Shown here one piece after another: positions 13,809 to 61,355 of a stretch of 64,000 bases of DNA. Numbering within the stretch: the stretch's first letter is position 1; each line of letters starts with the position of its first letter. The stretch is from a virus (Duplodnaviria; Heunggongvirae; Uroviricota; Caudoviricetes): the IMG/VR virus record IMGVR_UViG_3300008262_003982; one strand, written 5' to 3'. The position numbers were made by a program, and so were the translations under genes. The notes below the pieces were generated by a model. That model was not told the DNA's origin, ran no database searches, and was given only the letters and a program-made list of their open reading frames with translations.

Positions 13809-14516
13809 ATGAAAAAATTTACATACACTGGACCAAGTTGGGCGGCATCTAGTTGGCCGCTGGATGTACCAACAACTAATCTTGCCAAGGAATGGGGGTT
13901 TGAGTTCTATGACCATGCTCAATCTGGAACTAGTGTGTTGGGAAGTTATATTAGATTGGTACGATCGCCTAATGTACCTGTAATTTGGATCTATAATGAA
14001 CCTATTTTGTGTTTACAAGATGCAACTAAGTTAACTTTCAAAGAATTTATTCAGCGTTCAGACTGGAAAGATATTTGGGAAGAATGCAATCAATTTTGTC
14101 TGAACAAAATCAACAGTTTAAATAAACCTGTGTTGTTAATTGGAGCACACAGTGACATTGTTAATTGCAATTATCCAAACATTACTATAGGACATCTTTC
14201 CTGGCAAAAATTTCTAGCAGACAAAGCCGGAATGACTATTAATAATGGGTCGGTTTGTGTTATACTAAACGATGGCACAGAATTTGATATGCATCATTGT
14301 TGGGGTGCTGAAGTTATACACAGGTTCATGCACGAAACCCCTAACATCGATCCAGAACCAAGTTTGGTAGACAGTGTGTGGGACACATTCTTTTTTTGGA
14401 AACAACTTGAAACACAAGATTTGTTCAACAATGTTCATCCAAACTTCAAAGGCAATGTACTGTTTGCAGAACATTTAAAACCCACAGTGATAAAATTTTT
14501 ACAGGAACATCAATGA
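13809..14516 (+). CDS. hypothetical protein (possible SGNH-like hydrolase paralogue)
   Basis: Internal ATG at 13809 right after the upstream stop. 236 aa. Confidence 0.4.
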   Translation: MKKFTYTGPSWAASSWPLDVPTTNLAKEWGFEFYDHAQSGTSVLGSYIRLVRSPNVPVIWIYNEPILCLQDATKLTFKEFIQRSDWKDIWEECNQFCLNKINSLNKPVLLIGAHSDIVNCNYPNITIGHLSWQKFLADKAGMTINNGSVCVILNDGTEFDMHHCWGAEVIHRFMHETPNIDPEPSLVDSVWDTFFFWKQLETQDLFNNVHPNFKGNVLFAEHLKPTVIKFLQEHQ

Positions 14517-15727
14517 GAAAACTATTTTACATGGGCTTGGAAAGTTATGAAGCCCGCTACACACTACAACTCACAGAGTGGAATCGACGTGTGTTTGACC
14601 GCAGAGGTCTTGATGTTGTGTATGTGCCTGGCACTACAATTGACAACACACAAGCTATCTCAGTAGGTCAAGTGTTAGACGCACACGGACGCAGTTTCTT
14701 TGCCATGAGCCAAATGATGAACTTGGTTCAGCTCATGAAGAACGGCGATGTTACCGGTGACGATGTGATCTACTTTGAAGACATGTTCCAGCCGGGCTTT
14801 GAAAGCCTTGGTTACATCATGAATCAGATTCCACAAGAACAATGTCCAAAGATTTATGTTCGTTGTTTGGCACAGGCCATTGATCCTGATGACTTTGTGC
14901 ATGTGTGGGGTATGGCAAAGTGGATGAACTTGTATGAACAAATGGTCAATGAGATGGTGGCTTTCTCGGGGGGTGCAGTATTGGCTACCAATGAAGAAAT
15001 GGTCGCGCACATGCGCATCGCTGGATGGACTGCTCCAATCTACAACATTTCCGGTCTGGCATTTGGAAAATCAGAGGTTCTGGAAAGAATTGGCGGTACA
15101 GAGAATATCACGCCGTTTGCTGAAAGACCGAGACGAGTGGGTTTTGCAGCCCGTTTCGATCAGGAAAAACAACCTGGATTCTTCATGGACCTTATTGAGA
15201 TGTATGGTGAGCTTACCTCCGAACCGTGTGAGTTTGCAATATACAGTGGCGGACCTCTCCGATCCAACAATCCAGACTATATTGAACGTGCCCTCCGTAT
15301 GGAGGCAGAAGGCAAGCTCAAGATCTACGACAATATAAGCAAGAATGAATACTATAGTCATCTCAACAATACTCGTGTGTTGTTTAATTGTGCTTTACAA
15401 GATTGGGTTTCAAACACCGTATCAGAGGCCGATACTGTTGGATGCAATGTGCTATATCCAGCGTATCGCAGTTTTCCTGAAACCTTCGCGAACGATCCCA
15501 ATAGACTGTATATTCCCTGGAGCATAGATGATGCTTATCACAAAATGCAAAACCTACTTCGCGAGCCGCACCACAACATGGGACTTATTTCAGATTGGAA
15601 CAATGCCACTGTGGATCGCGTTATTGATATTATTAGTGGTAGCGGTGAGCAATGGAATAGAGCGGGCAACCGCTATCGTGACCACGCTTCTCACGAAAAA
15701 TATCAAGTTGTAAAGATTGAAAAATGA
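14513..15727 (+). CDS. hypothetical protein (possible glycosyltransferase)
   Basis: 404 aa ORF in the sugar-enzyme block. No firm motif. Confidence 0.4.
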   Translation: MRKLFYMGLESYEARYTLQLTEWNRRVFDRRGLDVVYVPGTTIDNTQAISVGQVLDAHGRSFFAMSQMMNLVQLMKNGDVTGDDVIYFEDMFQPGFESLGYIMNQIPQEQCPKIYVRCLAQAIDPDDFVHVWGMAKWMNLYEQMVNEMVAFSGGAVLATNEEMVAHMRIAGWTAPIYNISGLAFGKSEVLERIGGTENITPFAERPRRVGFAARFDQEKQPGFFMDLIEMYGELTSEPCEFAIYSGGPLRSNNPDYIERALRMEAEGKLKIYDNISKNEYYSHLNNTRVLFNCALQDWVSNTVSEADTVGCNVLYPAYRSFPETFANDPNRLYIPWSIDDAYHKMQNLLREPHHNMGLISDWNNATVDRVIDIISGSGEQWNRAGNRYRDHASHEKYQVVKIEK

Positions 15728-16686
15728 TTGTAATTGTAACTGGATCAGCCGGGTACATTGGTGGTCAGACCATGCTGGCATTGAAAGATGCCGGGCATGA
15801 AGTATACGGCATTGATCGCAGACAGCCTCCTGAACATCTTAGAGGTGTGCCCGATGGATTCTTGTATCAGGACTTTGCAAGTGATGTAGCACTGAGTTGG
15901 ATCATACAAAAGCAACCCAATGCTATCATTCATTGTGCTGGCACCAGCCTTGTGGGGCCTTCAGTACAGAACCCTTCAGAATACTACAACAACAATGTGG
16001 CCAAAACATTGAAGTTGTTGGATATTGTTAAACAAAGCATGCCTCGTTGTAGATTGGTGTTTTCAAGTTCAGCAGCCACATACGGTGAGCCCGTCATGAA
16101 TCCCATACATGAAGTGGATCCCAACGAACCTGTTAGTCCTTATGGCGAATCTAAACTGATGATTGACATGATGCTGGAAAGCTATCACCGGGCATACGGT
16201 CTTGACTATGTTAGTTTTCGCTATTTCAATGCATGTGGTGCAGACCCCAAAGGCAGGCATGGTCAAGAGCCTGGTGCCACACATATTATTGCTAGAGTGC
16301 TTGAAAGCATAAGGGATCAAAAAGATTTTGTGTTAAACGGAAACGATTTCCCCACTGAGGATGGTACATGTGTGCGTGATTACGTGCATGTGGATGATAT
16401 TGCCCGGGCCCACGTTCTGGCGTTATATCACAAAATCCCTGCGGGCGTTTACAATCTTGGCTCCAGCATGGGCACAAGCAATCACGGCATTATTGAAGCC
16501 GCACTTGATGAAACACAACAACCATTGAATGTTGTTGTTGGCAAGCGTAGAGCCGGTGACCCTCCTGTACTTACTGCCAGTTCAGAAAAGTTTAATTTGA
16601 TAGCAGGAGCATGGCGTCATTATGAGCTAGATGACATGATTCAACACGCATGGAACTGGTATGTTCGACAAGATAAAAAAGTTTGA
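15724..16686 (+). CDS. galE: NAD-dependent epimerase/dehydratase (UDP-glucose 4-epimerase-like)
   Basis: N-terminal Rossmann motif VTGSAGYIGG and the catalytic YGESK (YxxxK). Confidence 0.75.
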   Translation: MIVIVTGSAGYIGGQTMLALKDAGHEVYGIDRRQPPEHLRGVPDGFLYQDFASDVALSWIIQKQPNAIIHCAGTSLVGPSVQNPSEYYNNNVAKTLKLLDIVKQSMPRCRLVFSSSAATYGEPVMNPIHEVDPNEPVSPYGESKLMIDMMLESYHRAYGLDYVSFRYFNACGADPKGRHGQEPGATHIIARVLESIRDQKDFVLNGNDFPTEDGTCVRDYVHVDDIARAHVLALYHKIPAGVYNLGSSMGTSNHGIIEAALDETQQPLNVVVGKRRAGDPPVLTASSEKFNLIAGAWRHYELDDMIQHAWNWYVRQDKKV

Positions 16687-17257
16687 AGAAGAACTAGCAG
16701 AGTTCACAGGAGCACCGTATGCAATCATGACTGATTGCTGTACACATGCCATTGAACTTTGCTTGCGATATGATCGAGTACGAGCTTGTAAGTTTACACC
16801 TTACACTTATTTGAGCATTCCTATGACCATGCACAAGTTAGGCATTCACTATGTCTATCACGATATTGACTGGCAGCATTGGGAAGGCGAGTATGAATTC
16901 ACTTACACTAGAATTTGGGACTCAGCTCGCAGATTGGAACAGGATATGTATCGGCCAGGCACCATGCAGTGTTTGAGTTTTGGACATACAAAGCCATTGG
17001 CTATTGGGCATGGTGGTGCTATATTGTTGGATGATAAAAAAGCATATGAAACCATATTGCGCCAACGCTATGATGGCAGAGACTTGACTGTGGCACCTTG
17101 GCAGGACCAAAAGACATTTCATGTGGGCTATCACTACAAGCCCAGTATTGAAGATGCCATTCAAGGTGTGGCATTGCTACAAGGTGTCAAGGAACACAAT
17201 CCTAAACCTGTGTATGTGCCATATCCTGATCTAAGAAATATCAAGATTGTTGAATGA
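16661..17257 (+). CDS. DegT/DnrJ/EryC1-like N-terminal domain protein (truncated aminotransferase-like)
   Basis: FEEELAEFTGAPYAIMTDCCTHAIELCL resembles the N-terminal segment of DegT-family sugar aminotransferases. Only 198 aa. Confidence 0.3.
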   Translation: MFDKIKKFEEELAEFTGAPYAIMTDCCTHAIELCLRYDRVRACKFTPYTYLSIPMTMHKLGIHYVYHDIDWQHWEGEYEFTYTRIWDSARRLEQDMYRPGTMQCLSFGHTKPLAIGHGGAILLDDKKAYETILRQRYDGRDLTVAPWQDQKTFHVGYHYKPSIEDAIQGVALLQGVKEHNPKPVYVPYPDLRNIKIVE

Positions 17258-18255
17258 AGTGGTTTAGTTTTTCAAGACGCAATCTTGTGCATTATGGTGC
17301 ATTGCACATGGCACAATGGTATCTTGATAACCCTGGTCCTAGAGTAGAACAAGATTTAGCAACCAGCGGAATGTCACGAGCCGACTTGCACGGCAAAAAA
17401 CTCATAGTAGATTTTAGAGCCGAAGGCCAGTGTGACAAAGTGATCGGCAATCTAATTACGTATTTGCAAACACTACCAGTTGAAGATATCCTGGTGGTAT
17501 TCAACGCTGTGGTTGACGTTGATGGCCTTTCGTACAAAGCACTGTCGCAACCTACTTTTCTAACAAATTTTGCCGGTTGGTTTGATCGTCTTGATGCGTC
17601 TGGTGCCGCTACTGGCATTGACACAAAGTTTTTGTGTTTGATTCGTAGGCCCAGTATAAGTCGTGCTAGACTTGCTGCTGGGTTGACGGACATCTCTAGT
17701 GTCAGACTCAGCTTTGGTAGCATGGGTGCCAATAACATTACCAACGAATACCGAGAAATTATACCAAGAGAATTGCCGCTGTTGTTGGATGGGATTGTGG
17801 AACGATCAACTGGGCTAGAACATGACCAAACCAACAGCATGTTCAAAACCTGCATGTTCAATATTGTTGCAGAGTCTGGCAGTCAGTCTGATGTTGGCGT
17901 GTGGCGCAGTCATTTTATCAGTGAAAAAACATTCAAGGCATTTGGCTTGAGACAAATTCCAATTTGGTTTGCAGTTCCTGGTCTGGTTGCTGAAGTGCGT
18001 AAACTGGGGTTTGATGTGTTTGATGACATTGTCACACACAGTTATGACAACATCACAGATGAAGATCAGAGATTACATGCTGTGCTGAAAGAAATACACA
18101 GGCTAGATCAATTGACTGTGGGACAATGTTGTGAGTTAAAACAACAGTTGTCCACACGCATTGAAAACAACTATAATCTGTTGAGAGAATATGCACGAGA
18201 CGTAGATGCTTGGTACAGCCGCGTGGAAACAGAGTTTGATAAGAATGATTCATAG
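17254..18255 (+). CDS. hypothetical protein, member of a 3-gene paralogue family (C-terminal LGFDxFDDxVxHSYD motif)
   Basis: C-terminal similarity to 32939..33898(-) and 36086..37201(-). Confidence 0.5.
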   Translation: MKWFSFSRRNLVHYGALHMAQWYLDNPGPRVEQDLATSGMSRADLHGKKLIVDFRAEGQCDKVIGNLITYLQTLPVEDILVVFNAVVDVDGLSYKALSQPTFLTNFAGWFDRLDASGAATGIDTKFLCLIRRPSISRARLAAGLTDISSVRLSFGSMGANNITNEYREIIPRELPLLLDGIVERSTGLEHDQTNSMFKTCMFNIVAESGSQSDVGVWRSHFISEKTFKAFGLRQIPIWFAVPGLVAEVRKLGFDVFDDIVTHSYDNITDEDQRLHAVLKEIHRLDQLTVGQCCELKQQLSTRIENNYNLLREYARDVDAWYSRVETEFDKNDS

Positions 18256-18916
18256 ACTTGCTATTTTAGGAGACAGTTGGGCATATGGTGCAGAACTTGA
18301 GCCAGGCGAAAAATCATTTGGCCAGATCATTGGTGACCGTTTGAATGTGACCAGTGTGGATAATGTTGCAGTACCTGGATCCAGCATTCCTCACACAGTG
18401 TTGCAACTCAAAGGCTTTTTAGACAAGTACCGCACTGAAAGAGAAAATCCAGACAATAGGTACACTGTATTGGTGTTTTTGACTTCTCAACAACGTCACA
18501 TGACCTGGCATGATCGGCTGGTACATTTGCAACCCAACGGAGTGGCTGTGCCCAATGCCAATCCCACAGAACACAATCTAAACGAATTGTATTACAAGTA
18601 TTTTTCTAGCGATGCCGCACACGATTATGCTGTGAACACTGCTATCTTGACTGTGCAAGGAATTTGCAGAGAAGCCAGGGTAAATGCACTATTTGTTGCT
18701 GGCTGGCAAAAGATAAAATTTTGGTCTGAAGTAGACACTAGATACATGTATGAGAATGGCAAGGTAACTTGTGCTGACATACTGGGAGTGAAATTTACCA
18801 GTATGGAACGAGGACATGAATTGTTTAGCAGTAGTGGTGGCCATCCCAATCAACTGGGCCATCAAGTTATAGCAGATAGGTTAATTAGATGGGTCACAAA
18901 TCAATTAATCTATTGA
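18245..18916 (+). CDS. SGNH/GDSL-like hydrolase
   Basis: N-terminal LAILGDSWAYG (GDS block I). Confidence 0.45.
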   Translation: MIHRLAILGDSWAYGAELEPGEKSFGQIIGDRLNVTSVDNVAVPGSSIPHTVLQLKGFLDKYRTERENPDNRYTVLVFLTSQQRHMTWHDRLVHLQPNGVAVPNANPTEHNLNELYYKYFSSDAAHDYAVNTAILTVQGICREARVNALFVAGWQKIKFWSEVDTRYMYENGKVTCADILGVKFTSMERGHELFSSSGGHPNQLGHQVIADRLIRWVTNQLIY

Positions 18917-18983: not shown

Positions 18984-19676
18984 TTGGAAAAAAATCTATC
19001 ACAAGTCCTTCGCGAACGCATGAAGGCAGACGGCAAGAGATTCTGGGCTGGTGACAACATCAGTGATTATGTTGCTGAGTCAGATCGTGAACATTTGATT
19101 ATGGAGGCCACTCAAGCATTTGAACAAGTTCTCGATACACTACTAATTGACAGGGAAAATGATCCTAACTCACAAGGCACGGCGCAACGCCTTGCAAAAA
19201 TGTACTTCAATGAAATTATGGCTGGTCGCTATGAGACGAGCCCTAATGCTACGGCTTTCCCAAACGATACGGACGGAGCATACGAAGGTATGCTTGTGGT
19301 GCGTTCAGAGCTTAAGAGCATGTGTTCGCATCATCACCAGCCTGTTACGGGTGTGGCTTATATTGGAATCATTGCTGGCCCCAAACTTATTGGTCTATCC
19401 AAGTATACCAGGATTGCGCAATGGTGTGCCCGTCGAGGCACTCTCCAAGAAGAGCTATGTATGGATATTGCTCGCGAAATTGAATTCGCGACCGGGTCCA
19501 AGGATGTTGCAGTTTATATACAAGCTACCCATGGTTGTTGTGAGAATCGCGGTATCATGGCTCACTCTAGTCTCACCCAAACAACAGTTTTACACGGTGC
19601 GTTTAAATCAGACCAAAGTGTAAAAAAAGAATTCTTTGACAACATCAAACTACAACAGGACTTTGCACCACGATGA
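18984..19676 (+). CDS. folE: GTP cyclohydrolase I
   Basis: CSHHHQP...VAYIG, GLSKYTRIAQW and HGCCENRGI match the FolE active-site blocks. Confidence 0.8.
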   Translation: MEKNLSQVLRERMKADGKRFWAGDNISDYVAESDREHLIMEATQAFEQVLDTLLIDRENDPNSQGTAQRLAKMYFNEIMAGRYETSPNATAFPNDTDGAYEGMLVVRSELKSMCSHHHQPVTGVAYIGIIAGPKLIGLSKYTRIAQWCARRGTLQEELCMDIAREIEFATGSKDVAVYIQATHGCCENRGIMAHSSLTQTTVLHGAFKSDQSVKKEFFDNIKLQQDFAPR

Positions 19677-20083
19677 TATTTTTTCATGCATTACGAGATG
19701 ATCTGATGGTTCAACAACAAATCTCTAACTCATGGGAACACATGGTTGGAGTGATCATGTTGAATCAAACAGGCCGCAAATCTGTAAAAACAACCTTGCC
19801 AGAATTTTTATACTGGTTCCCAACGCCGGAAGCATTGATCGCAGCCGATGAAGATTTTGTAAAAAGCATTATTGCACCATTAGGTATGGCTAATGTAAGA
19901 TACACCAGATTGAAAAAAATGAGTCAAGACTACATGACTTGGAATGGTGATGATGCTACCGATTTGTACGGCATTGGCAAATACGGCAGTGATAGTTATG
20001 AAATTTTTTTCAAGAAGAACTATACTGTAGAACCCAATGACAAAGAACTCAAACGATATCTCAAAGAGGAAGTTTGCGTATGA
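19673..20083 (+). CDS. hypothetical protein with weak HhH-GPD (DNA glycosylase-like) resemblance
   Basis: IMLNQT...LYGIGKYGSDSYEIF is reminiscent of the Nth-like helix-hairpin-helix. Confidence 0.3.
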   Translation: MIFFHALRDDLMVQQQISNSWEHMVGVIMLNQTGRKSVKTTLPEFLYWFPTPEALIAADEDFVKSIIAPLGMANVRYTRLKKMSQDYMTWNGDDATDLYGIGKYGSDSYEIFFKKNYTVEPNDKELKRYLKEEVCV

Positions 20084-22313: not shown

Positions 22314-22781
22314 ATGGCAACAAATCAACCAGTACAATACAAGTACACCAGCACCAAAGAGTATCATGATGCTTTTCCCTGCGCATACCGTCAATGGCGT
22401 GCCGACAGCCACTGCAATCTAATTCACGGTTACTCATTCTCAATGAAGTTCTACTTTGGCACAGACAACCTGGATGTGCGTAACTGGGCCGCTGACTATG
22501 GCGGTCTCAAAGAACTTAAAAAGACATTAGAAGATCAATTTGATCATACCTTGCTGGTGTCTGCAGATGATCCAGAGCTGGCGACATACAAGCTCTTGCA
22601 AGAGAAAAAAATGGCCAAACTCACAATCCTGCCACGCTTAGGGTGTGAAGGCTTGGCAGACATGCTGTACAAGTATGTGAACGGTGTTTACATTCCGGAC
22701 CTGTGGGGACCGGGTGAAGCAGAGCGTCTCTGGTGCTATCGTGTGGAAGTGCGCGAAACACAGAGCGATCTATTCGTTTAA
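22314..22781 (+). CDS. queD: 6-carboxy-5,6,7,8-tetrahydropterin synthase (QueD/PTPS family)
   Basis: CNLIHGY in place of the usual CxxxHGH, and DYGGLKELKKTLEDQFDHTLL matching the PTPS block DFgdLk...lDHk.LN. Confidence 0.7.
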   Translation: MATNQPVQYKYTSTKEYHDAFPCAYRQWRADSHCNLIHGYSFSMKFYFGTDNLDVRNWAADYGGLKELKKTLEDQFDHTLLVSADDPELATYKLLQEKKMAKLTILPRLGCEGLADMLYKYVNGVYIPDLWGPGEAERLWCYRVEVRETQSDLFV

Positions 22782-22798
22782 TATAACAAGGAAAAATC

Positions 22799-23419
22799 AT
22801 GTTAGATCGAATCTTAAGTGGCGTTGACCGTGCATTGGCCTACAAGCTCATGCTGGCACATATCATTATCATTGCTATCAGCAACTACATTGTGCAATTC
22901 AAATTCTCAGTGTTTGGTGCACCATTGGCAGCAGCCGCATTCACATTCCCACTAGTGGTTGTGTTGACCGACTTGACTGTGCGAATGTTAGGCAAACAAA
23001 CTGGTCGTGCGGTGATTGCATTGGCATTCATCCCTGCTATCATTGTGTCAATGGCAGTGGTCAAACTGGGCGGTGCTCCTGACTCAGTTGCTTTCCGCAT
23101 TGGTCTTGGCTCGGGTGTTGCATACTTTGTGAGCAACTTGCTTGATGTGTACGTGTTCCAATACATTCGTGAAAAGTACGCCACTTGGTGGATTGCTCCT
23201 GCATTGAGTTCAATTGTGAGCACATTCTTTGATACCTATGTGTTCTTCTTTACTGCCTTTGCTGGTGGCGCAAATGAGTTCATGGCTGCTAACTGGCACA
23301 TTGTTGCAACCAACAATTCAATCAGTAAGATCATTGTGAGTCTGTTGGTTATTCTGCCTGCGTATGGTTTCTTGTTGAATCACTTGCAGAAAAAGCTGGC
23401 TGCAGACAATCAAGCATAA
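22799..23419 (+). CDS. yhhQ: queuosine precursor (preQ0/preQ1) transporter, YhhQ/DUF165 family
   Basis: Multi-TM protein with the SNYIVQ, TDLTVR and FMAANW blocks conserved in E. coli YhhQ. Confidence 0.8.
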   Translation: MLDRILSGVDRALAYKLMLAHIIIIAISNYIVQFKFSVFGAPLAAAAFTFPLVVVLTDLTVRMLGKQTGRAVIALAFIPAIIVSMAVVKLGGAPDSVAFRIGLGSGVAYFVSNLLDVYVFQYIREKYATWWIAPALSSIVSTFFDTYVFFFTAFAGGANEFMAANWHIVATNNSISKIIVSLLVILPAYGFLLNHLQKKLAADNQA

Positions 23420-23442
23420 TTACATCAAATTGGTAGGAATTT

Positions 23443-24312
23443 ATGGCACAAGAATTTGATATATCTTTACTGTTGGCCACTCGAGGTCGTACAGAAGCGT
23501 TGGGCAAAAGTGTTCGCAGTTTGTTTGAACTGGCTGACAATCCTCATCGTTTGCAAATCATGTTTGGATTTGACAAAGACGATGACAAAGGCAAAACGTA
23601 CTTCCAAACTGAATTGCAGCCTTGGTTAGACTCACACGGTTATCACTATACCGCCATGTTGTTTGACCCATTGGGATATATCAGATTGCATATCTACAAC
23701 AACAAGATGGCTGAGAAAGCCCTGGCTCCTTGGTTTGTTATTTGGAATGATGATGCCATCATGCAAACCCAGGGGTGGGACAGTGAGATTTTGAAATACA
23801 ATGGCAAGTTTAGATTGCTGGCATTCCATACTCACAACGACCACCCCTACTCAATTTTTCCAATAGTTCCACGCAAATGGTATGAACTGTTGGGATACAT
23901 CAGTCCCCATCCCACACAAGATGGGTGGTTGAGTCAACAGGCATACATGCTGGACATTTGGGAAAGAATTCCAGTATGGGTAGAACATGATCGCCACGAC
24001 TTGACTGGCAACAACGGCGATGAAACATTTAAAAATCGTGCCATGCTAGAAGGTCGCCCCGATGATCCGTTGGACTTTCACAGCGTTCAGCAAATGGACC
24101 TGCGACACCGAGACTGTGCAAAATTGGCCACATACATGCGCAGTGAATTAGGTATGGATCTTTCATTCTTTACCAACGTGTTCAACGGCAGTCAAGATCC
24201 CTGGGAAAAACTAGCACAGAATGATGTAAACAGTCAAATGGTTCAATTTGCCAACCCGCATACACATTTTGCAAAAAAAGATACTGATCAAAAACAAGTA
24301 AATAATGCATGA
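23443..24312 (+). CDS. hypothetical protein (possible GT-A-like glycosyltransferase; WNDDA motif)
   Basis: 289 aa ORF with a DxD-like motif. Weak. Confidence 0.35.
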   Translation: MAQEFDISLLLATRGRTEALGKSVRSLFELADNPHRLQIMFGFDKDDDKGKTYFQTELQPWLDSHGYHYTAMLFDPLGYIRLHIYNNKMAEKALAPWFVIWNDDAIMQTQGWDSEILKYNGKFRLLAFHTHNDHPYSIFPIVPRKWYELLGYISPHPTQDGWLSQQAYMLDIWERIPVWVEHDRHDLTGNNGDETFKNRAMLEGRPDDPLDFHSVQQMDLRHRDCAKLATYMRSELGMDLSFFTNVFNGSQDPWEKLAQNDVNSQMVQFANPHTHFAKKDTDQKQVNNA

Positions 24313-26291
24313 AAAGAAAAATTGCCTGGGTACAACCAAACTTCCAACAAGGTCCTAAAGAACTCAATGCCTACTACCTGCCATACTCAGCAGGTGTGAT
24401 TTGGAGTTATGCAGTTGCGGAACCCAGCATACGTGATGCATGGCAAGTGACTGAATGGGTGTGGCGCCGGGACAACATAGAGCCAATTGCACAACGACTG
24501 GCTGAAAATGATGTTGTGACTTTTAGCACTTATGTGTGGAATCACAATTTCAACTATGCATTGGCTCGCAGGCTCAAGGAGATCAATCCTGGCGTGTTGA
24601 CCATATTTGGCGGTCCCGAACCTGCAATCACAGACAAAGATCTGTTTCGCAAAGAACCATTCATGGACATTGTGATTTGCTACGAAGGTGAAATCACATT
24701 TAGAAATCTCATGCTGGCATATGACAGCAAAGACTGGGAGTCAATACCTGGCTTGCTGATCAATCGAGACGGCGAAGCTATAAGCACAGGTGATGCCAAG
24801 CGCATTGAAACTCTTGAAGATATTCCTAGCCCGTATCTGGCAGGTGTATTTGATGACCTAATGGCTGCAAATCCTGACATCATGTGGCAAGGCACACTAG
24901 AAACTTCTCGTGGTTGCCCATTTGCTTGTACGTTTTGTGACTGGGGTAGCTTGACATACAACAAGGTCAAGAAGTTTGGTTTAGAACGTGTGTACCATGA
25001 GTTGGAATGGATGGCTAAGCACAACTTTGATTTCATATCAATTACTGACGCTAACTTTGGCATGTTTGCCGAACGTGACAGTTTGATTGCAGACAAGATT
25101 ATTGAATGTCAAGAAAAGTATGGTTCTCCGAGAACTTTCTCTGTGGCCTGGGCCAAGAATCAAAAGAAAGAAGTTGTGGACATTGTTAAAAAATTGCTGG
25201 ATGCCCGAGGCTTCAATCAAGGTCTAACGCTGAGTGTGCAAAGTCTTGACTTGGATGTATTGGAAAACATTCGTCGCAAAAACATGGAAATGAACAAGCT
25301 CAACGAAGTATTTGAGCTGTGTGAGCAACGTAACATTCCAACCTACACTGAACTTATCTTGGGCCTACCTGGTGAAAGTCTTGAGTCTTGGAAGAAAAAC
25401 TTTTGGACTTTGTTTGAAATGGGCAATCATACTGGTCTCACGGTGTTCCAGGCTCAGTTGTTGGAAAATGCCGAAATGAACCTGTTGCAGAAGAAGTTGT
25501 TTAAGATTACCAATCAAAGTGTAACAGACTATTTTTCTGGATCATACTCCAACGAACACATTGAAGAAGCCATTGACATTATCACTGGCACCAAAGACAT
25601 GCCGTTTGATGTCATGATGGAAGCACATATTTTTTCATGGTTTATCAATACCTTCCACATCAATGGCATCAGCACACTGTTGAGTCGATTGGTGTTCAAG
25701 TATCAGGGTGTGCCCTACAGCGAGTTTTATGCAGACCTGTTTGAATACGTGCAAGGTCATGAATGGATCCACCGCGAACAAGAAGAAGTTCGCGAGTACT
25801 ATCGCAGTTGGATGACCAATGGCCGAATCAATCATCCCAAGATTGGCATTGAAATTCACGGATGGAACCTCATACACAGAACTGTGTTGAACATGCATGT
25901 GGAAAAACAAAATCACAATATCTTTGACATGTTAGAAAAGTTCATGAGTCGTTATGATTTACCGCCTGTGTTGTTGGAGAACATCATGCGATTCCAACGC
26001 AGATACCATGTGGCTTACGATGCTATGAACACTTATCCTGAGGTTTTAGAATTAGACTACAACATCTGGGAATATCTCAGCTTTGATCACAAACTTGTAC
26101 ATGCGCCAAGAGAATATCAACTGGAGTTTCCAGAAGATAAAACTATGAGCTTTCCACGTTTCTTAGAACTATTTTATTTTGCTAGACGTAGAAATTTTGG
26201 AAAAGCCACAGTTGAATGCTTGAACGCTGACACGCAGGTAGACGTTGCCAAACGCGGAGATGCTGGCGCCAGGGCAAAACTAGCAGCCTAA
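24309..26291 (+). CDS. B12-binding-domain radical SAM enzyme
   Basis: 660 aa. CPFACTFC (CxxxCxxC) lies after an N-terminal cobalamin-binding-like domain. Confidence 0.65.
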   Translation: MKRKIAWVQPNFQQGPKELNAYYLPYSAGVIWSYAVAEPSIRDAWQVTEWVWRRDNIEPIAQRLAENDVVTFSTYVWNHNFNYALARRLKEINPGVLTIFGGPEPAITDKDLFRKEPFMDIVICYEGEITFRNLMLAYDSKDWESIPGLLINRDGEAISTGDAKRIETLEDIPSPYLAGVFDDLMAANPDIMWQGTLETSRGCPFACTFCDWGSLTYNKVKKFGLERVYHELEWMAKHNFDFISITDANFGMFAERDSLIADKIIECQEKYGSPRTFSVAWAKNQKKEVVDIVKKLLDARGFNQGLTLSVQSLDLDVLENIRRKNMEMNKLNEVFELCEQRNIPTYTELILGLPGESLESWKKNFWTLFEMGNHTGLTVFQAQLLENAEMNLLQKKLFKITNQSVTDYFSGSYSNEHIEEAIDIITGTKDMPFDVMMEAHIFSWFINTFHINGISTLLSRLVFKYQGVPYSEFYADLFEYVQGHEWIHREQEEVREYYRSWMTNGRINHPKIGIEIHGWNLIHRTVLNMHVEKQNHNIFDMLEKFMSRYDLPPVLLENIMRFQRRYHVAYDAMNTYPEVLELDYNIWEYLSFDHKLVHAPREYQLEFPEDKTMSFPRFLELFYFARRRNFGKATVECLNADTQVDVAKRGDAGARAKLAA

Positions 26292-26293
26292 CA

Positions 26294-27004
26294 ATGCGCC
26301 GACTGTTTACGTTTGGTTGTAGTTTTACAAACTATCGCTGGAGCACCTGGGCAGATTGTCTTGCTCCAGAATTTGATCACTTTGAAAATTGGGGCCAGGC
26401 AGGAGGAGGAAATCAATATATTTTCAATTCAGTCATGGAGGCTGATCAAAGGCATTGTTTTGGTGACGGAGATACTGTTGTTGTATGCTGGACCAGTTTA
26501 GATCGAGAGGATCGATATGTTGACGGTCGATGGCACACACCCGGAAATGCACACTTCGCAACCAATGTGTTTAACAAAGAATACCTTAAAACACACATGG
26601 ATGAAAGAGGATTCCTAATTAGAGATCTGGCATGCATCAAAGCAGTTAAAACTCTACTGGAATCTCGACACAATCTAAAATGGGAATTTTTGAGTATGGT
26701 AGAATTAATGGCCATGCCATTTCCGTCCGACAATGTTAGCAAACACAGAGATGTCATGCGATTGTACGAAAATGTGGTTTTAAGTATCAAACCAGGGTAT
26801 GACAAAACTGTATTTAAAAACACTGGATATCCTAATAGAAACGGTGACCCACATCCCAGCCCCGAAGAACATTTGGCCTATTTAGATGCAGTATTACCGG
26901 GTTGGGTGACAAAACAATCTACTCGTGTTAAAATGCATGATGAAAGTATCAATCTAAATAAGAATCCCCGCAAGTCGGGAATGTCAAAGGTAACAAGGTT
27001 ATAA
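26294..27004 (+). CDS. hypothetical protein (GCSxT motif; paralogue of 28898..29626)
   Basis: FTFGCSFTNY compared with YVNGCSHTAA in the paralogue. Confidence 0.45.
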   Translation: MRRLFTFGCSFTNYRWSTWADCLAPEFDHFENWGQAGGGNQYIFNSVMEADQRHCFGDGDTVVVCWTSLDREDRYVDGRWHTPGNAHFATNVFNKEYLKTHMDERGFLIRDLACIKAVKTLLESRHNLKWEFLSMVELMAMPFPSDNVSKHRDVMRLYENVVLSIKPGYDKTVFKNTGYPNRNGDPHPSPEEHLAYLDAVLPGWVTKQSTRVKMHDESINLNKNPRKSGMSKVTRL

Positions 27005-27007
27005 ACA

Positions 27008-27853
27008 ATGAAATTAAAAGTAAGTGAACTATTTTATTCTGCTCAGGGCGAAGGACGCTATATTGGAGTTCCTTCTATCTTCTTACGAACCTTCGGTTGC
27101 AACTTTACGTGTTCGGGATTTGGATGCCAACCCGGTGATAAGAGCACTGAGGCAGATGACGTCGCAAAGAGCGTTCATCTCTACAAGACTTTTGAAGAGC
27201 TCCCGTTGGTTAATACAGGATGCGATTCGTATGCAAGTTGGCATCCTGACTTTAAACATCTAAGTCCCACATACACAGCACAAGAGTTAGTTGACAAAAT
27301 GGCTGCGCTGTTGCCCAATGGCCACTGGCAACAACCAAACGGCAATTCAGTGCATCTTGTGATCACAGGTGGCGAGCCATTGCTAGGTTGGCAACGTGCA
27401 TATCCTGAACTGTTGAATCTGTTGCACGAACGTGGACTGCGACACATTACATTTGAAACCAATGGTACTCAAGAACTCACAAGAGAATTCAAACAGTATC
27501 TGTCTGAATGGTTTGGCGAGATCACATTCTCAGTAAGTCCTAAACTTAGTGTCAGTGGTGAAAAGTATGAAGATGCTATCAAACCTGACATTATTTGGGA
27601 TTACGAAACTCACGGTGTTACCTATTTGAAGTTTGTTGTTGGTCACATTGATGATTTCAAAGAGCTTGATCTAGTAGTTGACGACTATCGAACCCGTGGA
27701 TTTAGCGGACCAGTTTTTGTGATGCCTGTTGGCGGTGTTGTGAGTGTGTATGATGGCAATAGAATTCACGTTGCCGACGAAGCACTCAAACGAGGTTATT
27801 GGTACAGCCCACGATTGCATGTGGACCTCTGGGGTAATGGATGGGGCAAATAA
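27008..27853 (+). CDS. queE: 7-carboxy-7-deazaguanine synthase (QueE-like radical SAM)
   Basis: N-terminal ELFYSAQGEG...FGCNFTCSGFGC matches the QueE hallmark SxQGEG plus a Cys cluster. Confidence 0.7.
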   Translation: MKLKVSELFYSAQGEGRYIGVPSIFLRTFGCNFTCSGFGCQPGDKSTEADDVAKSVHLYKTFEELPLVNTGCDSYASWHPDFKHLSPTYTAQELVDKMAALLPNGHWQQPNGNSVHLVITGGEPLLGWQRAYPELLNLLHERGLRHITFETNGTQELTREFKQYLSEWFGEITFSVSPKLSVSGEKYEDAIKPDIIWDYETHGVTYLKFVVGHIDDFKELDLVVDDYRTRGFSGPVFVMPVGGVVSVYDGNRIHVADEALKRGYWYSPRLHVDLWGNGWGK

Positions 27854-28428: not shown

Positions 28429-28901
28429 TATTCAATCACATCAAACAACTCAAAGCAGAAGGCAAAAAAATTGGCATCACTTTCTCAACCTTTGACATGC
28501 TCCACGCAGGCCACATTGCCATGCTTTCTGAAGCAAAAAATCACTGTGACTACCTCATCTGTGGGCTCCAAACGGACCCAACTATCGATAGGCCTGAGAC
28601 TAAGAATCGTCCGATACAAAGTATTGTGGAGAGACAGATACAGCTGGCTGCATGCCGTTACGTTGATGAAGTTGTTGTGTACCAAACCGAACAAGATCTA
28701 CGTGACCTTCTACTAATTCTGCCATTAGATGTTCGAGTACTGGGAGTAGAATACGAACACAAAGACTTTACCGGTCGCGACGAATGCTATGACCGCGGGA
28801 TTGAACTAGTATTCAACGGCCGAGATCACTCATTCTCATCCAGTAGCCTGCGCAAGCGTGTGGTTGCCGCAGAGACCGAAAAAGTACTGCTACAAAAATG
28901 A
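28425..28901 (+). CDS. cytidylyltransferase-like nucleotidyltransferase (TagD/RfaE domain II-like)
   Basis: FSTFDMLHAGH (HxGH motif). ATGA-coupled internal start. Confidence 0.65.
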   Translation: MIFNHIKQLKAEGKKIGITFSTFDMLHAGHIAMLSEAKNHCDYLICGLQTDPTIDRPETKNRPIQSIVERQIQLAACRYVDEVVVYQTEQDLRDLLLILPLDVRVLGVEYEHKDFTGRDECYDRGIELVFNGRDHSFSSSSLRKRVVAAETEKVLLQK

Positions 28902-29626
28902 TCTTGTATGTAAATGGATGCAGCCATACAGCGGCTGCCGAAGCAGTGGTGCCTGATTGCTTTGCTGTGGATGATGGTAGATATGGCATTGACCGTAGAC
29001 CTCATCCAATCAACTTGGAAGCCAGCTGGGGCAAGCAATTGAGCCGAATGCTCAACACTGAATTTTACTGTGATGCTGAGTCAGCAGCCAGCAATGACCG
29101 CATACTGCGTACCACTAACAAGTGGATTCATGAGAACTATAGCCGTTTGTATGACACTGTGATGGTAATCCAATGGACCACTTGGGAACGAGAAGAATGG
29201 GAGTATGAAGGCCGATGCTATCAAGTAAACGCCAGTGGTGTGGACATGGTACCACCAGAGCTTGAAGATAGGTATCGTCAGTACATTTTGGATGTCAACT
29301 GGACTCAAAAAACAGATGAATGGCATAACAAAATATGGCACCTGCATTGTCGGTTGAAAGATCTAAATGTACGACATTTATTCTACAGTGGCAACAGTAC
29401 ATTTAGTGATTTATTTAATCTAAGAGATTGGCAAGGGCATTACATTGAGCCATATTCAAGAGACCACAGTTGGAATGCCATACTAAAAAACAACGGATTT
29501 GAGCATGTGAATCCCAAAAGTTATCACTTTGGAGCCGATGGTCATAGATTTTGGTCGGAATATGTGTTACAATACTTGAAGGAACACAAACTTCTGGACC
29601 GCCCTAATGAAATATCTACTGATTGA
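28898..29626 (+). CDS. hypothetical protein (GCSHT motif paralogue)
   Basis: 242 aa ORF. Confidence 0.45.
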   Translation: MILYVNGCSHTAAAEAVVPDCFAVDDGRYGIDRRPHPINLEASWGKQLSRMLNTEFYCDAESAASNDRILRTTNKWIHENYSRLYDTVMVIQWTTWEREEWEYEGRCYQVNASGVDMVPPELEDRYRQYILDVNWTQKTDEWHNKIWHLHCRLKDLNVRHLFYSGNSTFSDLFNLRDWQGHYIEPYSRDHSWNAILKNNGFEHVNPKSYHFGADGHRFWSEYVLQYLKEHKLLDRPNEISTD

Positions 29627-31081: not shown

Positions 31082-31694
31082 CTTTAAAGAAGATGTAAAA
31101 ACTGTTACTGGTAATGAGACTGAATATTATAATTTTATAGATGAAAACTATTTGAAGGTATGTGCTAATGCTCGAGTACTTGAAGTAGGGCCGCATGTTG
31201 GAAAACACACTAAATTAATTGCAAAACATGCACCATGTTACTTAGAATGCATTGAAGGGAATATAGTTCACCAATCTACATTAGAAGATATTCCTGGAGT
31301 AGACAAAGTTGTGGTTGATGATGTTTGGCTTATGAGAGATGCTAAACCATTTGATGTTGTAATTTGTTTTGGTGTGTTGTATCATCATCATAGTTCATTG
31401 CATCTGTTGGAACTATTTGTAAATTATAATACACCAAAATACATAATGCTTGATTGTGTAACTGCCGAGCATCCGTTAGCTTATCTACCAGAAGATATTA
31501 ATATCAGCGGGTCGAGACAACTTCGAAAATCTTGGAAGCATTGTGGGGTCAATTTTAAAACTCCCTTCTTTATTATTAATCAATCACTGTCAAATATGGG
31601 ATATGATTTAAAAATATCACATAAATTACAAACCAGTTATTTTCCAAAATCTAATGGCTGGGTAGCACTTTGGGAACTTCGGGAGAACTTATGA
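31068..31694 (+). CDS. class I SAM-dependent methyltransferase
   Basis: Motif I VLEVGPHVG and motif II FDVVICFGVLYH. Confidence 0.55.
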   Translation: MHPYDFKEDVKTVTGNETEYYNFIDENYLKVCANARVLEVGPHVGKHTKLIAKHAPCYLECIEGNIVHQSTLEDIPGVDKVVVDDVWLMRDAKPFDVVICFGVLYHHHSSLHLLELFVNYNTPKYIMLDCVTAEHPLAYLPEDINISGSRQLRKSWKHCGVNFKTPFFIINQSLSNMGYDLKISHKLQTSYFPKSNGWVALWELRENL

Positions 31695-32059
31695 CCAATC
31701 CGTTTAGAGATCAAGAAAAATTTATGAAGGCTTGCGACCAAAGTGTCAACGAGTTTAACAAAGATCAATTTAACTTGTATGTTACATTGATTGAAGAAGA
31801 AGCCAACGAATTGGCTGATGCAATCACAGCACACGACCAAGTCGAAACTGTTGATGCACTTATTGACATTTTGGTTGTTACTATTGGTGCATTACACAGT
31901 ATGGGCGCAGATGCCGAAGGTGCTTGGAAAGAAGTCATGAAAACTAACTTTGCCAAGATTGATCGAGACACCGGCAAGGTTCGCAAGCGCGAAGATGGTA
32001 AGGTACTCAAACCTGTAGGCTGGACGCCACCTGATCTCAACCCATATCTTAAAAAATGA
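31691..32059 (+). CDS. mazG: MazG-like nucleoside triphosphate pyrophosphohydrolase
   Basis: EEEANELADAI...DALIDILVV is the MazG EExxE metal-binding helix pattern. Confidence 0.6.
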   Translation: MTNPFRDQEKFMKACDQSVNEFNKDQFNLYVTLIEEEANELADAITAHDQVETVDALIDILVVTIGALHSMGADAEGAWKEVMKTNFAKIDRDTGKVRKREDGKVLKPVGWTPPDLNPYLKK

Positions 32060-33898: not shown

Positions 33899-34613
33899 GA
33901 CCTATTTACTAAGTAGATCTATGTATTGGAATAATCCTCTTGTGGAATTTCACTGGCCCAGCAAACAAGATCCCATTCAGATCAGTTCAAATCAAGGCAT
34001 GCATTGCTTGTTCTGGAATCCCAGTTGCGAATTTCGACACTTTTCAACCAACCAACGACTGAATGATCTTTGCGAATGGGCCAATCAGTGGCTAGATCAT
34101 GATGGGCCAGCAGGGTTTCTAGCTGAGCCGCGCAATCACTATGACATTGCCAATCTTGTCAAGCTCAACATGTGGATACGAGACATACGAGCACAGGGCA
34201 TTATAAAACCATTTTTGGTGTTAGATCAGGGTGATGGCACATATCTTGCTGGCAATGGAGATTCACGATTGCGATGTCTAGAACGATTGCCCGAAATACA
34301 AACTGTGCCAGGATTTATTACCACACATCACAGTCGAGCACACTTGTATTCAGACTTTGAACCAATCACAACTTTTGATAGATTTGCCAAACTGTGCGGA
34401 GCAGATCCCGGACAGTTGTTTACTTTTAGATTTACAGATTCTCAGGCACCATACGGGTTGTACTGGTATGAATTCAACAGTTCTCGCACTAGGTCAGTGA
34501 CTCCTAGCGAATCACAATGCTTGGATTGGGTTGAAAAATATTTCAAGCAACATCCGCATGTGCGGATAAGTCCTGAGTGGTTTGATCAAGATATTGATTG
34601 GCATAATATCTAA
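33897..34613 (+). CDS. ParB/Sulfiredoxin-like domain protein (DpdB-like candidate)
   Basis: DGTYLAGNGDSRLRCL resembles the ParB N-terminal GxxR box. Confidence 0.35.
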   Translation: MTYLLSRSMYWNNPLVEFHWPSKQDPIQISSNQGMHCLFWNPSCEFRHFSTNQRLNDLCEWANQWLDHDGPAGFLAEPRNHYDIANLVKLNMWIRDIRAQGIIKPFLVLDQGDGTYLAGNGDSRLRCLERLPEIQTVPGFITTHHSRAHLYSDFEPITTFDRFAKLCGADPGQLFTFRFTDSQAPYGLYWYEFNSSRTRSVTPSESQCLDWVEKYFKQHPHVRISPEWFDQDIDWHNI

Positions 34614-36084
34614 ATCCAGTTTTGACAATTTGCTTCCACTGTGGTGCCCGAGCCTGATCTGGCACAGTGAATTTCATCCAAGGCAATGAATCATTGCAAT
34701 GTCCAGTGAATCCTTTTTTGGGAAGTATCATTTCTTCAGGCCAGGAGGCCAAAAACTGTCGACGAATCAAAGGTTTGCCGCGCCTCAGGTGCATGGGAAG
34801 GCCAAGTGCAAACCGAATGATCTTAGGATGCACAAATGGCGAGCGTGGTTCAATGCCATGTGCCATGGTACAAACGTCAATGCCACGCATGTCTATTGCA
34901 CAAATTTGAGTGATATAATCCATCAACAGAGTGGCTGGCTCTGCTTGACCTTGATGTGCATGCAAACATTGTTGCCACAGTTGTTGAGCGTGAGTGTCAT
35001 TGCCAAATGAACTGTAAGGACTTGCACTTGTTTGTGTGGTGTATTCAAGCTGTGAGTAAACGCCATAGCCACCAAACAGTTCATCAGCGCCTACACCAGT
35101 AAACAACACACGTTCTTTGCAGTGTTGAGCAATTATCCACTGGCCAACAAAACTGTAGCTTTGAACTGGCATCAGTGTGCGACGACACACTTGCTCAAAT
35201 GCATCGGCCCATTGCTGTTCTGTAACACCAATGTTGATGATTTTGTCTCGTTGACTGCCTTCCAACATACGTTGAGATTGTTCACTCACTGGGTCTTTGC
35301 CCAGCATGTTGGTGGTATAATAGTGCTGACTTTGTGGAAGACTTTTTGCAACCACGCCAGAATCAAGCCCACCACTGAATGTGCAGGCATAAGATGTTTC
35401 TGGCCGCATGTCAGTGATTACCCGTTCCCACAAGGGTTGATATTCTTCCCAGGCCTGGTCCAATGTTTGAATACTACTGGGTTTGGCCCATGAAAAGATA
35501 CTGTCAATCACTGTGGTGTTGCCCGACTGATCATACATCACACCTGGCACACATCGTTCAATTCCTTGCCAAGGCGTGTTTTGCCAAATTGGATAGTGTT
35601 TGGTTGTGTAATCAATGTCTTGTAATTTTGGTCGGATGTATACCAAAATAGCTGCCACCTCAGAACTCACAATCAGTATGTTGTTGTCTTGATATCTGTA
35701 CAGGCATCTTTCGCCTTGTGGATCAGTGGCATATATCACTTGGTCGCCTTGAGCATACACCCACGCCCACGGTCCTTCAAAGTATTTGAGTTTTTTTACT
35801 GGTGCGTCTTTTACAGCACGATACATCAGCTCAGTGTCGTTGCTGTAGGAACCAAACCAGCGATAGTTGTAGATTTCGCCATTGAATGCAAAAAAATCAT
35901 CTGACTGTCGATTGTAAAATTGTGTGTTGCCAGTGATGTGCAGAACTGTTTGCGCACAGAACACACGACCATGATGTTGGTAACAGGTAAAATCTGGACC
36001 GCGATCTTTTAAAATTTCTAGAGCTTGGTTGTGCTTTTCTAGCGGTATATCAGTGGTGCTTTTTACGTATAGAACACCACACAT
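34543..36084 (-). CDS. asparagine synthetase B-like glutamine amidotransferase with PP-loop ATPase domain (Gat-QueC-like)
   Basis: N-terminal MCGV (Ntn class-II GATase Cys2) and FSGGLDSGVV (the SGGxDS PP-loop). 513 aa. Confidence 0.75.
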   Translation of the reverse strand: MCGVLYVKSTTDIPLEKHNQALEILKDRGPDFTCYQHHGRVFCAQTVLHITGNTQFYNRQSDDFFAFNGEIYNYRWFGSYSNDTELMYRAVKDAPVKKLKYFEGPWAWVYAQGDQVIYATDPQGERCLYRYQDNNILIVSSEVAAILVYIRPKLQDIDYTTKHYPIWQNTPWQGIERCVPGVMYDQSGNTTVIDSIFSWAKPSSIQTLDQAWEEYQPLWERVITDMRPETSYACTFSGGLDSGVVAKSLPQSQHYYTTNMLGKDPVSEQSQRMLEGSQRDKIINIGVTEQQWADAFEQVCRRTLMPVQSYSFVGQWIIAQHCKERVLFTGVGADELFGGYGVYSQLEYTTQTSASPYSSFGNDTHAQQLWQQCLHAHQGQAEPATLLMDYITQICAIDMRGIDVCTMAHGIEPRSPFVHPKIIRFALGLPMHLRRGKPLIRRQFLASWPEEMILPKKGFTGHCNDSLPWMKFTVPDQARAPQWKQIVKTGFRYYANQYLDQTTQDLSAHADVA

Positions 36085-61314: not shown

Positions 61315-61355
61315 ATGAAATATTTATTTGCTCGCACACTAACTTAAATAATCGC

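Follow-up and report, generated by a model that had tools for sequence, protein, structure and literature searches.

We identified a gene for a radical S-adenosylmethionine (SAM) enzyme that depends on cobalamin, here called rSAM, in 64,000 nucleotides of DNA from a tailed phage (Duplodnaviria; Heunggongvirae; Uroviricota; Caudoviricetes; IMG/VR record IMGVR_UViG_3300008262_003982), a stretch referred to below as the window. It is located in the queD-queE interval of an island of deazaguanine and sugar-type genes. We propose that rSAM is an accessory C-methyltransferase of a sugar, either a nucleoside diphosphate (NDP)-sugar or a glycosyl group installed by the product of its upstream neighbour X, and that it belongs to a three-gene cassette, X-rSAM-Y, in a queD-queE slot; we give this reading a probability of about 0.5. 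The original prediction for this gene had read it as a class B radical SAM enzyme, a class that typically C-methylates, and had taken its position to suggest action on the deazaguanine base or a precursor. We found the enzyme class to be well founded, as ordinary chemistry in an unusual host, and the deazaguanine hypothesis to be weakened.

The open reading frame (ORF) of rSAM at positions 24309..26291 of the plus strand starts with ATG, encodes 660 residues and holds SRGCPFACTFCDW. Two Pfam models matched the protein above their gathering scores, B12-binding (PF02310; residues 58-134, E = 1.2e-11, with 45 bits where 32.1 are required) and Radical_SAM (PF04055; residues 198-362, E = 1.5e-10, with 41.9 bits where 29.5 are required). 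In the motif CPFACTFC the spacing is C203-PFA-C207-TF-C210, and the three cysteines aligned with C206, C210 and C213 of TokK. rSAM therefore has both hallmarks of class B radical SAM enzymes, a cobalamin-binding N-terminal domain and a CxxxCxxC motif in the core, and the ORF and the order of motif and domain that had been read from the sequence were exact.

To place rSAM among characterized enzymes, we compared it with solved structures and with NCBIfam models. The closest structure was TokK (E = 6.6e-85, 289 bits, rSAM residues 19-484), followed by CysS (E = 2.6e-50). Identity to TokK was 36 % over 464 aligned positions; by region it was 36 % for the cobalamin (Cbl) domain, 42 % for the radical SAM core and 21 % past residue 400. 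The top NCBIfam model was KedN5 (NF033712; E = 1.8e-76, rSAM residues 13-392); its 257.7 bits are well short of the curated 700, and only model positions 5-389 of 624 are covered, which by this measure places rSAM outside that family. In TokK, Trp76 is located beneath the cobalt (the equivalent lower-face tryptophan in CysS is W75) and Trp215 is an active-site residue, and both positions have been described as clade-specific. We found tryptophans at both equivalent positions in rSAM, W77 in the Rossmann domain (nt 24537-24539) and W212 after the CxxxCxxC motif (nt 24942-24944), which are the markers of the TokK/ThnK/CysS clade. Because TokK and CysS are the closest relatives and both clade-specific tryptophans are kept, the prediction of a methyltransferase is well supported.

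The substrate is a different matter. TokK contacts its substrate through R280, N515 and Y652, and CysS through W271, a gate residue, and F485; in both enzymes the C-terminal domain is the substrate-recognizing domain. TokK R280 and CysS W271 both aligned with Ser278 of rSAM, and TokK N515 and Y652 fell outside the aligned part. Since the alignment ends at rSAM residue 484 and identity beyond residue 400 is 21 %, the pantetheine-binding C-terminal part is not common to the two proteins. The replacement of these contacts by Ser278, together with the diverging C-terminal domain, leads us to expect a different substrate for rSAM.

We also compared rSAM with individual systems. TokK and ThnK, which alkylate C6 of carbapenems (PDB 7KDX), share with rSAM the series of Cbl Rossmann domain, radical SAM core and C-terminal domain, but the carbapenem context is absent around rSAM. 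CysS and KedN5 methylate iteratively, converting a methoxy group to ethoxy, isopropoxy or butoxy, and CysS shares the lower-face tryptophan; by analogy, iterative methylation by rSAM is possible. GenK and GenD1 (gentamicin) and Fom3 offer a functional analogy for the proposed role, namely cobalamin-dependent C-methylation of sp3 carbons on sugars or on nucleotide-activated substrates. Fom3 acts on a cytidylylated substrate, and a cytidylyltransferase-like gene is conserved in the island around rSAM. No close sequence link between rSAM and GenK, GenD1 or Fom3 was found, and the analogy is one of mode, not of family. Thus, of the class B methylases with which rSAM might be compared, TokK and CysS proved close, whereas the Fom3 and GenK families named in the original prediction were not among the strong matches. 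DpdM, a DUF3109 metalloprotein with a CxxxCxxCC metal site, methylates the aminomethyl nitrogen of dPreQ1 (the deoxynucleoside of 7-aminomethyl-7-deazaguanine, preQ1) and is unrelated to rSAM in fold; rSAM showed only the B12-binding and Radical_SAM domains and no such DUF3109 site. DpdM, the formyltransferase DpdN and DpdL belong to the same type of neighbourhood as rSAM, and QueC and QueF of the preQ1 branch were not found in any window ORF scanned.

Next, we examined how widely rSAM recurs. It has more than 4000 homologues. An identical protein was found in at least 51 assembly blocks (contigs up to >200 kb), always with the same neighbours, and in an exhaustive search 1573 clusters at 50 % identity matched it at E <= 1e-30. 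More than 100 representatives of such clusters outscored TokK against rSAM, many of them aligning to residue ~635. The family splits into full-length subtypes that are ~52-55 % identical to one another: subtype A is the clade of the window, subtype B is also located beside QueD with X, and subtype C (52-54 % identical to the window rSAM over its full length) is located in a different island. W77 and W212 were invariant across subtypes A-C and in GC-rich homologues from metagenome-assembled genomes (MAGs), and the C-terminal motifs FHING, GWN and RxRNFG were invariant in every subtype. In each domain, subtype A was equidistant from the others, no closer to B in its Que context than to C or to the MAG homologues. 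Judged from these alignments, rSAM represents a distinct, uncharacterized and nearly phage-restricted subfamily within a known kind of enzyme.

Among described phages the gene is scarce. The rSAM protein matched no PHROG family; tblastn against 50,697 phage records gave two weak matches only (28-30 % identity, uncultured gut phages), no cultured phage in that set, the deazaguanine phages included, carried the gene, and megablast of the 6-kb rSAM region against phages matched nothing. On these grounds, hardly any cobalamin-dependent radical SAM methylase is known from phages. Literature searches turned up no paper reporting a B12 radical SAM enzyme in the deazaguanine or glycan islands of phages.

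We then asked whether the position of rSAM links it to the deazaguanine pathway, using ~200 related loci (numbered L) whose gene maps were drawn with tblastn and phmmer thresholds; the annotation of neighbours leaves out ~13 loci with unrecognized neighbours. In at least 40 loci at >=70 % identity the order QueD-(YhhQ)-X-rSAM-Y-QueE was invariant. Synteny in the first 43 loci was considered as proof of a functional link and rejected, because in these close relatives the whole region from the epimerase to MazG is collinear and shared ancestry explains the invariant order. With DpdL instead of rSAM as the anchor (80 loci, L050-L129), a core of u512-u177-DpdL-404-aa protein-epimerase-DegT-FolE-(HIT)-QueD...QueE, whose less familiar members are described below, was conserved, also where rSAM is missing. 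The interval from QueD to QueE (window 22781-27008) was hypervariable, with lengths between 48 bp and 5.2 kb and seven or more different gene contents. It measured 48 bp in L117 and 620 bp in L099, and held YhhQ only (L068, L090), X only (L071, L113), X with another ORF and Y (L062), other ORFs (L126, L128), X-rSAM-Y or X-rSAM-X-Y. YhhQ was in the slot of only a minority of related loci. Among the DpdL-anchored slots that could be scored, ~9-11 lacked rSAM and 6 had it, in a sample whose 10-kb flanks are biased against long slots. These results indicate that the QueD-QueE interval is a variable cargo slot in which rSAM is optional, and the location therefore does not assign the gene to the deazaguanine pathway.

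The original prediction had named absence from related dpdA phages as evidence against a deazaguanine link, and we found just this: rSAM is missing from the deazaguanine clusters of ACP17, phiST and BUCT-ZZ01, and at least nine close relatives with an intact QueD...QueE have no rSAM. Across lineages, rSAM did not co-occur with the deazaguanine system. The neighbours reported earlier, queD and yhhQ upstream and queE downstream, were confirmed, but the genes that directly flank rSAM, X and Y, had been left out. Because the interval is a cargo slot, position between queD and queE is misleading as the only basis for annotation.

The gene was also found where no Que gene was seen nearby. With subtype C as the lead, a metagenome scan added 80 loci, 34 of them with >=3 kb on both flanks. 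A Que gene was located within 5 kb of rSAM in 10 of these well-flanked loci and not in the other 24, which is among the findings that leave the inference from gene position to the deazapurine unsupported; 16 of the 24 Que-less loci lie among sugar or rSAM-island genes. In subtype C the island comprises three SPASM radical SAM genes, two further radical SAM genes, an epimerase, rSAM and a Y-like gene, as well as UDP-glucose dehydrogenase, a second B12-rSAM (753 aa), a short DegT, DUF6071 and a carbamoyltransferase, with no Que, DpdL or X gene within 10 kb; over the subtype C loci, no Que gene was seen within 8-10 kb. Up to seven radical SAM genes stand in a row in such loci (L033 1-21899, L036 1-21959, also L136, L138, L156 and L159), a density that is unusual for a virus.

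A scan of 185,579 species genomes with family-specific N-terminal peptide patterns, which could recover only this rSAM subfamily, gave five MAG contigs. Three were phage-like, with subtype B or C contexts. The other two, L133 (66 % GC, on a 505-kb contig) and L134 (58 % GC), differ from the phage loci (29-45 % GC) and are probably bacterial. Their homologues, 48-49 % identical to rSAM, are located directly 3' of a GT41-like glycosyltransferase, in glycan clusters with DegT, MocA oxidoreductase, a xylose-isomerase-like TIM barrel, FkbM, a short-chain dehydrogenase/reductase (SDR), GT1-like transferases, a GDP-mannose-dehydratase-like gene and a thiamine pyrophosphate (TPP)-E1 pair. Que genes were absent from both clusters. 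In two of the three types of context, then, the gene directly upstream of rSAM is one for a predicted glycosyltransferase, and sugar-nucleotide enzymes recur in all three.

X and Y were examined next. The stop codon of X overlaps the rSAM start by 4 nt, and X is predicted to be translationally coupled to rSAM. Its AlphaFold2 (AF2) model (predicted local distance difference test, pLDDT, 81.5; predicted template-modelling score, pTM, 0.81) had the GT-A glycosyltransferases RmlT, TarP, PcManGT and TarS as top Foldseek matches in PDB, each at probability 1.0 with a moderate TMq of 0.44-0.54. X matched PHROG 14945, 'glycosyltransferase', at E = 3.3e-9, and its family has an invariant W-N-D-D motif; Pfam gave no match for X, and running profiles of X and of Y over the PDB sequences yielded nothing useful. 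We also considered X as a hidden DpdA and rejected this because of its predicted GT-A fold. Y begins 2 nt past the rSAM stop and ends 3 nt ahead of queE. It carries invariant, SGNH-like GCSFT...D185-x-H187-P blocks, and DUF6071 was matched in Pfam by 2 of 16 aligned family members (best E = 4.9e-9) and not by the window copy. A Y homologue lies directly 3' of rSAM in the subtype C locus L033 (E = 1.2e-29). Among the 34 well-flanked loci X was adjacent to rSAM in 9 of the 10 Que-context loci and in none of the 24 others; within the QueD-QueE slot rSAM was always accompanied by X, and X was also found without rSAM. Separately, the window holds three SGNH/GDSL/DUF6071-like paralogues within 11 kb of the plus strand (18206-18916, 26294-27004 and 28898-29626), and in L002 and L003 a phosphoribosyltransferase gene stands between rSAM and Y (L002 11949-12458).

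Taken with its relatives, the deazaguanine system of the window most likely is of the phiST/ACP17 type, as judged from its gene content. The base-synthesis genes near rSAM are FolE, QueD, QueE and DpdL, the last a proposed decarboxylase of 7-carboxy-7-deazaguanine (CDG). The window DpdL is 37 % identical to phiST DpdL (E = 5.9e-14), matches ACP17 gp125 at E = 1.1e-42 and carries LGTPHRHIF, an exact LxxxHRHxF signature; it had no Pfam match and fell in PHROG 17812, 'unknown function'. Because FolE, QueD, QueE and DpdL are present and QueC was not found, we predict a phiST-type pathway to deoxy-7-deazaguanosine (dDG), with 7-deazaguanine or CDG as the most likely base. DpdL relatives gave at least 588 matches in viral contigs.

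A probable DpdA is u512, whose gene is always directly upstream of u177-DpdL. The consensus of its family has the motifs GDSGGFQ, VLQG, GWxMGG, HFLGTS and FDCASP of the tRNA-guanine transglycosylase (TGT) superfamily, and the window ORF itself shows DSGGFQ, LGTS and FDCASP. Against a DpdA2-like profile, u512 gave an in-register alignment (hhalign E = 8e-5, probability 61 %). No match to it was found in Pfam (including TGT), PHROG or PDB. Probes with phiST DpdA3 and ACP17 DpdA on the window and all loci gave one marginal match, which led to u512, and otherwise nothing significant, and a scan of viral contigs with ACP17 DpdA alone returned only ACP17 itself. These alignments suggest that u512 is probably a new divergent DpdA subfamily. 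The 404-aa protein matched ACP17 gp124 (E = 1.9e-10) and a BUCT-ZZ01 protein encoded beside DpdL and DpdA (E = 5.6e-179), and is conserved in DpdL-type clusters of three phage lineages: BUCT-ZZ01, ACP17 and the jumbo-phage relatives, nearly all of which have it. It appeared GT-B-like by eye, which searches of Pfam, PHROGs and PDB did not confirm; a PDB search with u436 of L033 likewise gave nothing. In ACP17 the order is QueD-FolE-gp122-DpdA-gp124-DpdL-QueE, where gp122 and gp124 correspond to window 12589-13122 (u177) and 14513-15727 (the 404-aa protein). u177 also matched gp121 of the Pseudomonas jumbo phage PA5oct (E = 7.8e-45), near which no Que genes are annotated. For the deazaguanine field, these findings mean that DpdL-type clusters are very common in viral contigs, with a probable divergent DpdA and two conserved partners.

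How might rSAM work? By analogy with TokK, ThnK and CysS, a first SAM would methylate cob(I)alamin to methylcobalamin, and a second SAM would be cleaved at the [4Fe-4S] cluster held by C203, C207 and C210 to give a 5'-deoxyadenosyl radical. This radical would abstract hydrogen from an unactivated sp3 carbon, and the substrate radical would take the methyl group from methylcobalamin, possibly repeatedly. rSAM would then belong with the genes by which the phage handles nucleotide-sugars and tailors glycans (epimerase, short DegT, FkbM, sulfotransferase and cytidylyltransferase), outside 7-deazaguanine synthesis, and X and Y may cooperate with it. If a sugar is methylated, the phage would encode an elaborate B12-dependent glycan chemistry, with the virion, the host surface and DNA as candidate targets.

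Several observations weigh against this proposal. In subtypes A and B rSAM always lies within QueD-QueE, tightly packed and co-directional, with no predicted plus-strand terminator, and for these reasons it is probably co-expressed with the deazaguanine genes; in a promoter and terminator scan the counts were at chance level, which is weak support for co-transcription. Sugar-type and deazaguanine genes are interleaved across the island (window 9-29 kb), and because of this interleaving, and of the 404-aa protein beside DpdL/DpdA, the two sets could form one pathway. The substrates known for TokK and CysS are pantetheinylated small molecules, none of them sugars. The edges of some subtype C islands abut deazaguanine genes (L145, L167 and L204), and since the flanks examined cover 8-10 kb, Que genes may be located elsewhere in those genomes. 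The assignment of L133 and L134 to bacteria draws solely on GC content, contig size and MAG labels. Furthermore, the AF2 model of rSAM is poor (mean pLDDT 69.9, core and linker regions <50), and for this reason no active-site inference or fold search was drawn from it. The tight packing with probable co-transcription, the interleaving, the confinement of X to the Que slot and the short flanks also keep explanations linked to DNA under consideration.

The strongest of these, though an improbable one in our judgement, is a single DNA-hypermodification pathway in which X, the 404-aa protein or both would glycosylate the modified base or DNA, and rSAM would methylate the appended group. It would account for the interleaved genes, for the retention of the 404-aa protein beside DpdL/DpdA in ACP17 and BUCT-ZZ01, and for the restriction of X to the QueD-QueE slot, where rSAM never occurs without it. 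However, neither 7-deazaguanine nor CDG has an obvious acceptor site for a glycosyl group, phiST makes dDG with none of these genes present, Que-less contexts are where subtype C and the MAG homologues occur, and the label of glycosyltransferase for the 404-aa protein is a motif impression. [quoted passage not shown]

We regard as unlikely the idea that rSAM C-methylates the deazapurine ring or an intermediate, such as 6-carboxytetrahydropterin (CPH4), CDG or 7-deazaguanine, to give a methylated base in phage DNA. In its favour are the queD-queE location that subtypes A and B share, with probable co-transcription, the complete-looking system of FolE, QueD, QueE, DpdL and probable DpdA in the window, and the precedent of DpdM and DpdN, which tailor phage deazaguanines. 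But rSAM is missing from cultured deazaguanine phages, many close relatives retain the pathway without it, and its homologues are also found in Que-less phage sugar islands and MAG glycan clusters. Moreover, with DpdL present and neither QueC nor QueF, the expected bases, 7-deazaguanine and CDG, would have no sp3 C-H and therefore no carbon of the kind that TokK-type enzymes attack; the enzymes of the TokK/CysS clade characterized so far all abstract hydrogen from sp3 carbons. CPH4 has sp3 carbons, yet a methylated CPH4 must stay compatible with QueE.

Methylation of a pantetheine- or carrier-linked small molecule, neither sugar nor DNA, is very unlikely. TokK, CysS and KedN5, which do this, are the closest characterized relatives, and a ketoacyl synthase and fatty-acid desaturases are encoded elsewhere in the window; against this stand Ser278 at the substrate-contact position, the divergence of the C-terminal domain from TokK, and the ~200 loci, in which no carrier-protein, nonribosomal peptide synthetase (NRPS) or polyketide synthase (PKS) gene lies beside rSAM and sugar enzymes and glycosyltransferases recur. 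The least likely is non-methylating chemistry, such as OxsB-like ring contraction, BchE-like cyclization or AprD4-like dehydration: class B enzymes are diverse in mechanism, and BchE and AprD4 matched weakly in NCBIfam, but the methylases are far closer (289 bits for TokK and 258 for KedN5, compared with 53 for BchE at E = 2.5e-14 and 29 for AprD4) and both clade-specific tryptophans are kept. A BchE or HpnR paralogue, which had been named as the case that would speak against a methylase, was thus not the match (HpnR 31.5 bits, E = 6.7e-08), and the PhpK family reached only E = 6.8e-12 in NCBIfam.

Table 1. Positions of rSAM, its neighbours and other features of the window
Feature	Position	Strand	Basis
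Probable divergent DpdA (u512), 512 aa	9006-10544	+	TGT-superfamily motifs, hhalign
u177, 177 aa, stop overlaps DpdL start	12589-13122	+	homologue of ACP17 gp122 (E = 7e-8)
DpdL homologue, proposed CDG decarboxylase giving 7-deazaguanine	13119-13562	+	phiST and ACP17 probes; motif
404-aa protein	14513-15727	+	homologue of ACP17 gp124 and a BUCT-ZZ01 protein
QueD (CPH4 synthase), upstream slot boundary, outside the cassette	22314..22781	+	Pfam PTPS; ACP17 QueD E = 2.5e-47
YhhQ-type preQ0/preQ1 transporter, optional slot cargo	22799..23419	+	Pfam Vut_1, NCBIfam
X, predicted GT-A (GT2-type) glycosyltransferase fold, 289 aa	23443..24312	+	AF2, Foldseek, PHROG
rSAM, cobalamin-dependent radical SAM enzyme, TokK/CysS-like, predicted C-methyltransferase	24309..26291	+	ORF list, Pfam, NCBIfam, PDB
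rSAM cobalamin-binding Rossmann domain (residues 58-134)	24480..24710	+	Pfam
rSAM CxxxCxxC motif C203/C207/C210, [4Fe-4S] ligands	24915..24938	+	read from sequence, TokK alignment
rSAM family-specific C-terminal domain (~residues 400-640)	25506..26228	+	sequence alignments
Y, SGNH/DUF6071-like, 236 aa	26294..27004	+	motif blocks, Pfam on family members
QueE (CDG synthase), downstream slot boundary	27008..27853	+	NCBIfam QueE models; BUCT-ZZ01 QueE E = 8.4e-78
SPFH/Band 7 protein	40968-41762		
Fatty-acid desaturases	42219-42983 and 62054-62785		
Gram-negative porin	44972-45862		
Ketoacyl synthase	47533-48504	-	
Further radical SAM protein	50992-52116	-	
Class I methyltransferase	53893-54666		
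TauD dioxygenases	57749-58618 and 59659-60570		
Hexapeptide transferase	61278-62057		

The genome that carries the cassette belongs to an abundant uncultured jumbo-phage lineage. Its family B DNA polymerase (3892-6552) is closest to those of jumbo myoviruses, at 51 % for Sinorhizobium phage Phosso, 47 % for Agrobacterium phage Atu_ph07 and ~42 % for GAP32/CBB, and homologous loci were found on contigs of 250-365 kb. The auxiliary genes of the window include sulfotransferase, FkbM, epimerase, a short DegT, GDSL/DUF6071, cytidylyltransferase, HIT and MazG, as well as the AsnB-like, porin, desaturase and TauD genes. The 'DegT' at 16661-17257 has only 198 aa, a size conserved in all relatives, and is therefore not a fragment.

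Some further genes recur around the deazaguanine genes. Phosphoribosyltransferases were seen in BUCT-ZZ01, where XGPRT is beside QueE (L216 13303-13764), and in phiST (L047 28218-28646), and MazG-like genes recur as well (window 31670-32059); the pattern is a hint that the deazapurine may be handled at the level of the nucleotide. An AsnB-like glutamine amidotransferase (GATase_7 and Asn_synthase domains) is encoded on the minus strand at 34543-36084 and near the island in L004, L021, L042, L043 and L002; in principle, a carboxylate such as CDG could be amidated by it. A short HhH-GPD base-excision-type protein (136 aa) is encoded right after FolE in the window (19673-20083, plus strand), and its gene varies in position among the loci, following u147 in L013 and L015, preceding DpdL in L058 and lying within the QueD-QueE interval in L125 and L189.

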